From Nitrososphaeria archaeon (GTDB lineage: Archaea > Thermoproteota > Nitrososphaeria > Geothermarchaeales > JDFR-13), in assembly GCA_027078545.1 (NCBI GenBank), contig JALWXN010000004.1, positions 224,001 to 288,000 on the forward strand: a stretch of 64,000 bases of DNA. The letters are read 5' to 3'. Numbering within the stretch: the first letter of the stretch is position 1; every line of letters begins with the position of its first letter. Below the pieces are notes generated by a model that saw nothing but the letters and a program-made list of their open reading frames with translations, searched no databases and had not been told where the DNA came from. Position numbers and translations under genes: made by a program. Positions 2,287 through 24,168 of this stretch are shown here, piece after piece.

Positions 2287-2380
2287 GGGGCCGTGGTGTA
2301 GCTTGGCTAGAACCGAGTTTGGTGGCCAGCATGCGGGCCTCGGGAGCCCGTGGTCGCCGGTTCAAATCCGGCCGGCCCCA
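2287..2380 (+). tRNA. tRNA-Pro(CGG) with a 19-nt non-canonical intron in the D-arm (approx. 22/23; 2311-2329)
   Basis: Removing AACCGAGTTTGGTGGCCAG gives a sequence identical to tRNA-Pro(TGG) at 6434-6511 except position 34. BHB-like helix GGCT/GGCC with bulges AGA and AGC. Confidence 0.93.
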
Positions 2381-2395
2381 CCTGAAGATGCCTGG

Positions 2396-3691: not shown

Positions 3692-3824
3692 GGGGCCGTG
3701 GCCCAGCCAGGAAGGGCGGCCGACAATATCGTTGGCTGAGGCTCCAGATCCCGGTATTAGGACCCTCTGGGGATGACTGGTGGATACCGGTCGGTCGTGG
3801 GTTCAAATCCCACCGGCCCCACCA
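3692..3824 (+). tRNA. tRNA-Trp(CCA) with two introns: 18 nt at 30/31 (3723-3740) and 38 nt at 37/38 or 38/39 (approx. 3749-3786)
   Basis: The spliced product has anticodon arm GCCGG-CT CCA GA-CCGGT. Intron 1 BHB is CGGC/GCTG with bulges CGA and AGG. Intron 2 helix is TCCA/TGGA. CCA end encoded. Confidence 0.92.
3751..3780 (+). ncRNA. Candidate intron-encoded K-turn guide for C39 of pre-tRNA-Trp
   Basis: CCGGTATT is antisense to the 3' splice junction GATACCGG. It is followed by the K-turn AGGA-CCC-TCT-GGG-GAT-GA-CT. The N+5 position pairs with C39. Confidence 0.55.
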
Positions 3825-3959: not shown

Positions 3960-4454
3960 GTGCCTAATAGGCGTGATGTAATAAAGGCGTTGGCTGCCGC
4001 TTCTGGTCTAGCCTGCCTAGCCCCATTCATACCTCTGGGCAAGTTCCTTACCCCTGAGTCTGGAACCGCCCCTCCACGTCAGAAAATAGCTAATATCGAG
4101 GATATCCCGATTGGTACTGAGAGATTTGTTGTATATCCCCGTAGTGGTGATCCCGCGAGGGATAAGGATCCTTTTAGGCAGTTCACCGTGGTCAGGACTG
4201 GTGAGCGTGAGGTAGTTGGGTATAGTAGGGTCTGTATCCATCTATGGTGTCTCATATCCCTAGATAAGGAGACTGGAAACACGTTCCAGTGTCCATGCCA
4301 CGGAAGTATTTATACTGTGGAGGATGGCTTTGCAATTGCGGGTCCCGCAGCTAAGCAGCCCAACAGATATCTACCTAAGCTCCTCCTCGAGATAGACGAG
4401 GCGGGCGATATATACGCTGTTGGTGTGGAGGGTGAGATTGGATATGGCAGGTGA
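3960..4454 (+). CDS. Rieske [2Fe-2S] subunit of complex III, Tat-exported
   Basis: Twin-arginine NRRDVIK followed by a hydrophobic helix. Rieske motifs CIHLWC and CPCHGS. Confidence 0.93.
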   Translation: MPNRRDVIKALAAASGLACLAPFIPLGKFLTPESGTAPPRQKIANIEDIPIGTERFVVYPRSGDPARDKDPFRQFTVVRTGEREVVGYSRVCIHLWCLISLDKETGNTFQCPCHGSIYTVEDGFAIAGPAAKQPNRYLPKLLLEIDEAGDIYAVGVEGEIGYGR

Positions 4455-5784
4455 GGAGCAGCAGAAGAAGTCTCTAGTAGATAGGGCCATAGAGGCCTAT
4501 GACTGGACTATTAAGAGGCTAGAGAGGACCATCCTATTCGGTATCCGCTTCGTAGTTCCAAATAGGATCGTGAGTCCCCATGGATTTCTAGGTATGCTCA
4601 CCTTCATAACCTTCATAGTCCTAGGTATTACAGGAGGCCTCTTAATGTTCTACTACCGCCCAACTCTTGACCAGGCATATCCCAGTGTAGAGATGATTAA
4701 CAATGAGGTGGACTTCGGGATAATTATTAGGAATATCCATTACCACGCCTCTAACCTTATGATCTTCCTGGCCATTTACCACCTGTTCTACCAGTTGTTC
4801 TCAGGGAGGTATAAAATTAGGAATGAGGTTATATGGGTAACTGGGGTCATACTCGGTACACTTACAATCATCGAGGCCTACATAGGATACGACTTGATAA
4901 TGAATGAGAGGGCTGTTCTAGCCATCAATATTGGTGCTGCCCTGGCTTATTCAACCCCTGTTATAGGACCTGTAATAGCCGATATAGTGATAGGCACGGG
5001 CTTCAACGACCTAGTCCTTAGAATATATGCTCTACACGTCTTTATACTCCCCTTGACGATGCTCCTACTAATCACGTTACACTTCCCTAGGAACCTGGTC
5101 TTCGACCCAGGTATGGCTGGTATTGTGGTGGGTACCCTGTTCATCACTTCGGCTCTATATCCAGTTCCACTTGGTAATCAGTACGATCCGTTTAGACCAC
5201 TCCCCATAACGATCCCAGAGTGGTATATCAACCCGCTATACGCACTGTTGAGAACAGGTATAGATAAGTTTGTTGCTGGCGTACTCCTCCCCACACTGTT
5301 CATCATGATGTTTATGATAGTTCCGTTTGTTGACAGGTCTAAAGGGATGAGGCTCGCGGATAGGCCTGTGGCCCTGGGTATTGGGCTAGCTGGCGTTTCT
5401 CAGAGCATCGTCACCACAGTCTGGGGGTTCTATGTAGACCCGGATCCAACAAAGGGTTATAATGCCCGTCTAGAGATCGACCCAGTGCTCTTCTTCGGTG
5501 TACTTATACTTCTAAACGTGGCGTCATTCGGCGCTGCATATGCCTACTCCAAGTATAGCAAGGGTAGAAAGCCAGAGCCTGTAAGGAGGGCTACTCAGCA
5601 GTTTAAACTATCTGATGAGGAGTTGACGGCCCTCTTCTACCTGCTATTAGCTGCAGAGATAGCCGTGGTTATACTCTCCCTTGTATCCTACTACATGGGT
5701 AACCTGATCTTCGGAATGCTTATGACGGGGGCGTCGCTGATCGCCTTCGGATTCATTACATATGTCATTAGGTTGATGTCGTGA
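4444..5784 (+). CDS. petB: Cytochrome b of complex III (fused b6/subunit IV type with extra C-terminal TM helices)
   Basis: Heme-ligand His residues in RNIHYHASN, YHLF, YALHVF and TLHFP. Qo-site PEWY motif. Start taken at ATG 4444. Confidence 0.93.
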   Translation: MAGEEQQKKSLVDRAIEAYDWTIKRLERTILFGIRFVVPNRIVSPHGFLGMLTFITFIVLGITGGLLMFYYRPTLDQAYPSVEMINNEVDFGIIIRNIHYHASNLMIFLAIYHLFYQLFSGRYKIRNEVIWVTGVILGTLTIIEAYIGYDLIMNERAVLAINIGAALAYSTPVIGPVIADIVIGTGFNDLVLRIYALHVFILPLTMLLLITLHFPRNLVFDPGMAGIVVGTLFITSALYPVPLGNQYDPFRPLPITIPEWYINPLYALLRTGIDKFVAGVLLPTLFIMMFMIVPFVDRSKGMRLADRPVALGIGLAGVSQSIVTTVWGFYVDPDPTKGYNARLEIDPVLFFGVLILLNVASFGAAYAYSKYSKGRKPEPVRRATQQFKLSDEELTALFYLLLAAEIAVVILSLVSYYMGNLIFGMLMTGASLIAFGFITYVIRLMS

Positions 5785-5793
5785 GGTGGGATT

Positions 5794-6396
5794 ATGGATC
5801 GTGGCCTCTATTTGGCTAGCGTCTTCCTAATAACAATAGGTCTGCTCGGGGTTTGGCTCGGCTCCTTTGCAGGCGTCTCTGAGTCGTTTGTCGAGATGAC
5901 TCCCCCCTCATTAGCAGTCTTCCTTCTAGGGCTATTCCTACTACCCATAGCTCTCTTCAAGGGTGGGCCTCCCACTGCTGATGCATATGTACCCATAGCC
6001 TTCCTCTTTGTACTTGGATTTCTATTGATTGGCTGGGGATTCATGTTCGGAGGTGAGGGTGAGACAGTCATCCTAGGCACTCAGGAAATGTATCTAGTGA
6101 TGACCGAGTACGCTTTTAACTACACCAACCCAGATATCGAGGTTTATCAGAACTATTTGGTAAGGGTGATACTCGATAATAAAGGAGAGGTTCAGCACTC
6201 GTTCATGGTCCTCGGGGTCTCGGAGGACAGTGGGTATATCGACCCTGAGCAGGTATACACCATGGAGTTCGTGATAAACCAAGACCCTGGGGTGTATGAG
6301 TATCTATGTACCGTCCCTGGTCATAGAGAGGCAGGGATGTACGGAACCTGGATTATTCAAGAGCCTCCTGAGAACGCTACAGCCACTGGTGAATAG
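5794..6396 (+). CDS. Membrane-anchored type-1 blue copper (cupredoxin) protein
   Basis: Three N-terminal hydrophobic segments. Copper ligands in QHSF and YLCTVPGHREAGM (H, C, H, M). N-glycosylation sequons NYT and NAT. Confidence 0.9.
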   Translation: MDRGLYLASVFLITIGLLGVWLGSFAGVSESFVEMTPPSLAVFLLGLFLLPIALFKGGPPTADAYVPIAFLFVLGFLLIGWGFMFGGEGETVILGTQEMYLVMTEYAFNYTNPDIEVYQNYLVRVILDNKGEVQHSFMVLGVSEDSGYIDPEQVYTMEFVINQDPGVYEYLCTVPGHREAGMYGTWIIQEPPENATATGE

Positions 6397-24048: not shown

Positions 24049-24168
24049 GCCGCCGTAGCTCAAAGGTGGAGCGCCCGGCTCATAACTAGGATGTTATGAG
24101 CTATGACCCTATGGGGGATGATGTGGGAGACCGGGAGGTCGCGGGTTCGAATCCCGCCGGCGGCACCA
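24049..24168 (+). tRNA. Elongator tRNA-Met(CAT) with a 45-nt intron at 37/38 (24085-24129)
   Basis: GCCGCCG acceptor stem (elongator type). CCCGG-CT CAT A[intron]A-CCGGG. BHB helix CTCA/TGGG with bulges TAA and AGA. Confidence 0.93.
24093..24124 (+). ncRNA. Candidate intron-encoded C/D-type methylation guide for C34 of tRNA-Met
   Basis: GTTATGAGC is antisense to GCTCATAAC. It is followed by T, D'-like ATGA, a CCC-TATG-GGG stem and C'-like ATGATGT. The N+5 position pairs with C34. Confidence 0.6.

Follow-up and report, generated by a model that had tools for sequence, protein, structure and literature searches.

The second intron of the tRNA-Trp gene described here raises the question of whether 38 nt are enough to guide a 2'-O-methylation on the same transcript that carries them. 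The gene lies in a window (the whole stretch of DNA that was analysed, 64,000 nucleotides) belonging to a 1.24-Mb genome, 92% complete, whose host is a vent archaeon of the Geothermarchaeota; the sequencing run that contains the stretch is hydrothermal vent metagenome DNA. Judging from its sequence and that of its orthologues, intron 2 is probably a guide with a single K-turn, directed at C39 of its own pre-tRNA, and C39 is the base whose methylation we infer.

The tRNA-Trp gene and the anatomy of intron 2

The features of the locus are listed below by window position.

3692 to 3824, + strand: tRNA-Trp(CCA) gene with two introns and an encoded CCA end (splicing in silico and ARAGORN)
3723 to 3740, + strand: intron 1, 18 nt, position 30/31, with a bulge-helix-bulge read by hand from the sequence
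3748 to 3785, + strand: intron 2, 38 nt, position 37/38; the alternative register 3749 to 3786 gives an identical product
3751 to 3757, + strand: antisense (D') guide, N+5 base G3754; seven Watson-Crick pairs with 3784-3790, covarying in orthologues
3759 to 3762, + strand: D' box (sequence AGGA) on the K-turn strand without the bulge; its GA does not vary among 15 short introns
3763 to 3771, + strand: C-stem of 3 bp (3763-3765/3769-3771) with a variable 3-nt loop, 3766-3768
3772 to 3779, + strand: 3-nt bulge (3772-3774) and C' box (3773-3779); GATGA invariant in the 15 short introns
3780 to 3785, + strand: intron 3' end, forming the lower strand of the splice motif; the two terminal bases are also paired with the guide
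3784 to 3790, + strand: target, made of the last two intron bases and exon bases A38 to G42; predicted methylated base C39 = 3787

When both introns are removed in silico, a normal 77-nt tRNA-Trp(CCA) is recognized by ARAGORN, which missed or miscalled the unspliced gene. The bulge-helix-bulge of intron 1 makes use of the D stem's 3' strand, and the variants found among vent populations are located in its loop. The CUGA of intron 1 (3736-3739) was considered as a D box and rejected, since it is imposed by the splice motif and has no C-box partner. As regards the surroundings of the gene, a tRNA-Pro(CGG) whose D arm is interrupted by an intron, and to which ARAGORN gave no name, occupies 2287-2383 (+), and the open reading frames downstream of tRNA-Trp (3960-6396, +) resemble, by eye, a Rieske protein, cytochrome b and a cupredoxin-like membrane protein.

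The length of 38 nt that the preliminary description had assigned to intron 2 stands, while its span is better given in canonical 37/38 coordinates as 3748-3785, the shifted span 3749-3786 leading to the same tRNA. In the 37/38 register, the central helix is composed of two Watson-Crick pairs, one wobble and one mismatch; in the shifted register, all four pairs are Watson-Crick and the lower bulge is non-standard. Such a perfect 4-bp helix in the shifted register occurs only in this species and in G002 (2 of 108 introns), and the orthologues favour the 37/38 register, where three or four Watson-Crick pairs are found in 95 of the 108. On the sequence, the exact cut may fall at 37/38 or one base later, both registers being possible.

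Intron 2 contains the elements of a standard K-turn, namely, a C-stem, a 3-nt bulge, tandem G.A/A.G pairs (A3762.G3775 and G3761.A3776) and an NC stem, with G3760-C3777 and A3759-U3778 as the next pairs. The K-turn previously placed at 3757-3780 is correct in its fold, but not in its two extending G.U pairs, which count the guide bases U3757 and U3758 twice. Similarly, the C' box is present and matches D', with its heptamer located one base later than proposed, at 3773-3779, G3772 being the first base of the bulge. We could confirm the pairing of the guide (3751-3758) with 3783-3790 across the 3' splice site, in the form of seven Watson-Crick pairs extended by a U3758.G3783 wobble, as well as the assignment of AGGA as D' box, by which the fifth base upstream of it, G3754, is paired with C3787, that is, with tRNA position 39. 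The energy of the guide duplex is -11.7 kcal/mol on the pre-tRNA versus -8.7 kcal/mol on the spliced tRNA (5 bp only) at 37 C, and -5.3 kcal/mol at 70 C. When intron 2 was subjected to 200,000 dinucleotide shuffles, a K-turn alone appeared 2,772 times (1.4%) and a 7-bp complement of the junction, at any location, 508 times (0.25%); the two together in register appeared in 0 of 200,000. The guide helix and the splice fold exclude each other, with computed energies of -40.5 and -42.7 kcal/mol, respectively (K-turn unscored), and the minimum predicted for the naked RNA is neither of them, the folding program not scoring K-turns.

Only 3 nt precede the guide in intron 2, so that the terminal C box (RUGAUGA) is absent, and no terminal D box (CUGA) was found on the 3' side of the intron; the internal D'/C' motif is present in a non-consensus form (AGGA/AUGACUG). 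The duplex of seven Watson-Crick pairs and one wobble is below the ~9-12 bp of archaeal box C/D sRNAs, and the prediction of guides usually demands 9 continuous pairs (PMC6009581). The Rfam scan of the window returned no match to a guide-RNA family, and RF01133 was unmatched at the locus even at E 10. By these features, intron 2 would function like a box C/D guide and yet falls outside the canonical box C/D sRNAs, having no terminal boxes, a short guide and no Rfam match. The segment 3766-3772, which can pair with the anticodon loop, was also evaluated as a relocated C34 element and discarded, since its sequence changes in G002 and in the vent populations and no D box follows it.

Conservation and covariation among Thermoproteota

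The survey comprised 108 distinct tRNA-Trp introns at position 37/38 from Thermoproteota. The K-loop was chosen blind to the guide and was assigned in 87 of the 108, distributed over 29 family-level groups, by a rule that misses a few introns with very short loops. Counting the introns with at least six contiguous pairs to the 38-44 region (n = 55), the base opposite position 39 occupies +5 in 50 of the 55 guide-bearing introns (18 families), at +6 in four and elsewhere in one. This register holds although C' may lie anywhere between 6 and 23 nt from the intron end; the intron 3' end measures 6-7 nt in 13 introns devoid of the C34 element. The most frequent D' box among the orthologues is CUGA (21 of 87). 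The Trp introns of family f45 (L252-L254) have the guide at +6 and contain the junction sequence once more, close to the intron 3' end.

Covariation was examined in the 54 introns whose guide is paired to exon bases 38-41. In 49 of the 54, compared to 17 expected by permutation, guide position -3 forms a Watson-Crick pair with the last intron base, and the pair types (C-G 25, U-A 11, A-U 9 and G-C 4) each occur in more than one family; in terms of distinct family-by-pair combinations, 20 of 24 are paired versus 6.7 expected, with p-values that are overstated by kinship. In particular, the last two bases of the intron co-vary with guide positions -3 and -2, and a clean double change at the junction pair distinguishes the congeners L073 and L074. 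In 18 of the 54, the window intron included, guide position -3 is unable to pair with G37 of the spliced tRNA, and in this set position -1 is never Watson-Crick. Moreover, the guide follows exon changes at position 41 (G-C 45, C-G 6, A-U 1). An artefact due to a direct repeat or to the palindromic stem was considered and rejected, since the guide tracks its complement where the stem is non-palindromic, including the changes at position 41.

In the alignment of the 15 short introns, 92% of the cells pair and four of the nine pairs change on both sides, a pairing level reached by no shuffle or slid control. The first two pairs of the C-stem are invariant, and the 3n:3b and 4n:4b pairs vary on both sides; the latter is A-U in nine introns, G-C in three and U-A in one, which bears out the earlier proposal that the non-consensus D' box is compensated by C'. 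The guide and the GA/GA pairs, which had been singled out for comparison across Trp introns, proved to be conserved and co-varying.

In related vent populations, intron 2 differs only at 3766-3768, in the hairpin loop, in contrast to the numerous differences found in the downstream flank. The congeners G003 and G004 show junction mismatches, and the guide of G004 has exon bases 38-44 as its only partners, so that even within the genus the junction is not always paired. The earlier notion of a target specific to the pre-tRNA holds for the window intron, where the spliced tRNA allows 5 bp only, but does not extend to the latter congener. Furthermore, the in-register guide has been lost in about one-third of the K-loop Trp introns, and several families have short Trp introns without the K-turn/guide unit, which indicates that the unit is dispensable. 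With respect to single records of the survey, the tRNA-Trp genes L083 and L084 (family f6) are intron-less, with A instead of G at position 37, and G013 contains two different tRNA-Trp genes (L003 and L074); its gene on a 2.8-kb contig resembles those of the window's genus and may come from contamination of the bin.

Sister units and the reduction of the dual guide

The same arrangement of guide, D' box, hairpin and C' box around one K-turn was identified in the Met, Lys(CUU), Lys(UUU) and Cys introns of the same genome (G000), at the following locations.

24085 to 24129 of the window, + strand: tRNA-Met(CAU) intron, 45 nt (gene 24049-24168), with the same one-K-turn unit
G000:C4:115540-115671 (- strand) and C4:292081-292233 (+ strand): tRNA-Lys(CUU) and tRNA-Lys(UUU), respectively, both unit-bearing
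G000:C4:492715-492823, - strand: tRNA-Cys, 33-nt intron with a unit aimed at C39

In the tRNA-Met(CAU) intron, whose unit is conserved in G001 and G002, the guide spans 24094-24101, D' is at 24103-24106, C' starts at 24118 and the N+5 base falls on C34 (24081). In the two Lys introns, N+5 falls on C34 or U34, respectively, in every recovered member of the family (loci L333-L358), and by the +5 rule all the Met and Lys cases recovered in the family aim at position 34. The Cys units aim at 39 across the junction in eight family genomes, with compensatory changes read by hand, and in the window's genus the Cys guide begins within the anticodon itself. Short introns of 12-26 nt in the genome are without the one-K-turn unit. 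Since 34 and 39 are the positions known for this system, the occurrence of guides aimed at them in several tRNAs supports a guide role. Beyond these cases, the long insert of tRNA-Tyr (G000:C4:187123-187279, +) contains a stem that resembles a K-turn oriented the other way round, which suggests a guide of the H/ACA type. By eye, similar units could be noticed in Met and Lys introns of Aenigmatarchaeota, Hadesarchaea, Micrarchaeaceae and unlabelled archaea (L086, L088, L092, L094, L097, L100, L109, L130, L135, L136, L144, L145, L146, L154, L159, L185 and L190); L146, a Lys gene of Thermoproteales, appears to have its unit aimed at 39 and an AGGA D' box.

The euryarchaeal Trp intron presents the order C box, guide-39, D', loop, C', guide-34, D box (PMC2584109, additional file 4), and its 39 duplex already contains intron bases, so that the reading of the junction is a published feature (PMC2584109). 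On comparison of the two, the guide of intron 2 is a homologue of the D' guide of this box C/D RNA, and TACK guides, for instance that of L219, match the D' guide published for Pyrococcus. The C34 antisense element is kept in 72 of the 87 K-loop TACK introns and is absent in the window's genus, where intron 2 measures 38-44 nt; in none of the 68 TACK introns carrying the element do the four bases at the D position read CUGA or CCGA. The absence of terminal boxes in TACK fits the report that the Sulfolobus intron has no consensus boxes (PMC3326292). Within the window's family, two genera retain the C34 element (L007 and L008) and three are without it. In a separate group, labelled Sulfolobales or Desulfurococcaceae, full forms coexist with decaying ones and with forms of 36-38 nt; the 36-38-nt introns have either the AGGA/AUGACU box pair seen here or its G-C compensated version. 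The C34 element is also absent from introns like that of the Pyrodictiaceae record, and other families have retained it with loss of the 39 guide, or have lost the entire unit.

The dual guide was probably reduced in two steps, in which the terminal C/D boxes disappeared from the surveyed TACK Trp introns and the C34 element was lost thereafter. The idea of a half-size version keeping only the position-39 guide is borne out, with the refinement that the loss of the terminal boxes extends to the TACK Trp introns of the survey and that the loss of the C34 element alone is particular to this lineage (and some others). Losses of this element appear to have been at least two and independent, as counted by taxonomy. 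A second intron in the 5' half of the gene was considered as the driver of the loss and discarded, since 38 loci have both and 7 neither, which gives no rule. No free-standing Trp C34 guide was found in the genome (92% complete), where the best matches are inside reading frames, nor among the 8 candidate four-box C/D sRNAs listed from intergenic regions (G000 C4:1076147, c891359, c1137039, 371175, c358835 and 576118; C1:81301 and c84211).

Proposed mechanism, alternatives and known systems

Genes for fibrillarin, Nop5 and L7Ae are present in the genome, which also contains ordinary four-box C/D guide candidates. In the mechanism we propose, L7Ae would bind and fold the K-turn of intron 2, and the guide would draw bases 38-42, on the 3' side of the anticodon stem, away from their usual partner, in a conformation incompatible with the splice-competent fold; Nop5-fibrillarin would methylate the ribose of C39, after which the RNA would refold to the bulge-helix-bulge and be spliced. 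According to PMC4382518, a Watson-Crick 3b.3n pair prevents K-turn folding in ions alone; intron 2 has such a pair, and its kink should therefore need protein. For mature tRNA-Trp of S. acidocaldarius, Cm34 is stated in the main text of PMC7668247, whose table gives Cm34 and apparently Cm39 (machine-read, with a garbled row label); this Cm39 could come from another guide and is no proof of a role of the intron. The Trp intron L266 has the one-K-turn layout.

The weakest step is the action in cis, which we regard as somewhat likelier than action in trans, because the duplex is just 7-8 bp in a vent organism and is weak when hot. Haloferax data obtained in vitro favour trans action (PMC2584109), and the Haloferax Trp intron can be deleted (PMC4090602). 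The main objection to a guide with one K-turn is that an engineered archaeal one-motif RNA methylates without site specificity (PMC1635284). It is conceivable, though we deem it rather unlikely, that the C39 target is kept and the second K-turn is supplied in trans, with the Nop5 dimer bridging either two pre-tRNAs or one pre-tRNA and a circular intron already excised. This would agree with the Haloferax data, with the requirement of two motifs for specificity in vitro (PMC1635284) and with the very stable circle formed by the Sulfolobus Trp intron (PMC3326292), but heat leaves the duplex weak (-5.3 kcal/mol at 70 C) and no second K-turn can form across the circle junction of intron 2. Such bridging is a variant of the self-aimed guide, and most of the evidence is common to both.

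Less probable still is a structural switch, by which L7Ae would keep the pre-tRNA out of the splice fold and time or order splicing, with no methylation. The exclusive and energetically close folds and the absence of the terminal boxes of a full guide RNA are in line with it; nevertheless, a switch does not need the fixed +5 register (50 of 55), and would not hit exactly 34 or 39 in five tRNAs. Finally, a decaying remnant of the dual guide, freed from selection and owing its complement to the palindromic anticodon stem, might account for the non-consensus boxes, the lost C34 element, the junction pairs broken in G003 and G004 and the self-complementary 3' exon start of the window's genus, but it is very improbable in view of the compensatory changes within the family, the population variants confined to the loop, the guides that follow non-palindromic stems in other genera and the near-identical minimal design of a distant lineage, and the covariation already refutes it for the most part.

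Returning to the guide for C39, we tentatively extend it to many archaea, with the reservation that this broader picture may well prove wrong: natural one-K-turn guides aimed at their own transcript would methylate a single ribose in cis and with site specificity, the folded pre-tRNA replacing the second motif and modification being enforced before splicing. The unit would be a re-targetable cassette (five tRNA genes here, with 34 or 39 as target), of which the 38-nt intron would be near the smallest form. The parent system, the target and the reading of the junction were already known; the new part would be the reduced form with a single K-turn and C39 only. In the literature, searched with most subscription papers outside the search, we found no description of a tRNA-intron guide for C39 only or with one K-turn. 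The 36-38-nt design appears to have been reached in at least two distant lineages, aimed at different bases in different tRNAs, and offers a reason for the retention of some tRNA introns. It would also provide a small natural substrate for the study of how specificity arises, in cis or in trans, a question that is open for the classical Trp intron (PMC2584109), as well as the protein-binding motif reported missing from the Sulfolobus Trp intron. As the K-turn is found in a Sulfolobus-type Trp intron, the proposal can be tested in a cultured and genetically tractable organism.

Compared to the euryarchaeal dual guide (Haloferax volcanii, Pyrococcus sR50), the window intron shares the host gene, the intron site, the order guide-D'-loop-C' and a D' guide directed at 39 by the N+5 rule. 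In both, intron bases are paired, which implies that the guides act before splicing. Different from the dual guide, the window intron is without the terminal C box, the terminal D box and the C34 guide, its D'/C' motif is non-consensus with a Watson-Crick 3n:3b pair, and it measures 38 nt versus about 55-105 nt, with no RF01133 match. For the 65-nt tRNA-Trp intron of Sulfolobus solfataricus, complementarity to position 39 was reported and a guide role suggested (PMC3326292); its authors found no C/D boxes and described no K-turn, and it keeps the C34 element that is absent here. In the survey, the introns of family f33 have the same single K-turn as intron 2, with the guide at +5. The tRNA-Met intron RNA of Nanoarchaeum equitans likewise shows C/D-like elements in a non-Trp tRNA intron, but it is 66 nt long, belongs to a different tRNA and, in the available part of its report, is given no target (PMC3491384). 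One K-turn and one guide also characterize the archaeal hemi-RNA (PMC1635284), where the target is covalently attached as in the window pre-tRNA, and the single-domain guide of Xenopus oocytes (PMC6770171). However, these engineered single-motif RNAs are artificial, with a motif of the terminal type and consensus boxes, and the archaeal hemi-RNA is not site-specific, two K-turn motifs being needed in vitro for specificity (PMC1635284), whereas the natural intron unit, with its one motif, keeps a strict +5 register.
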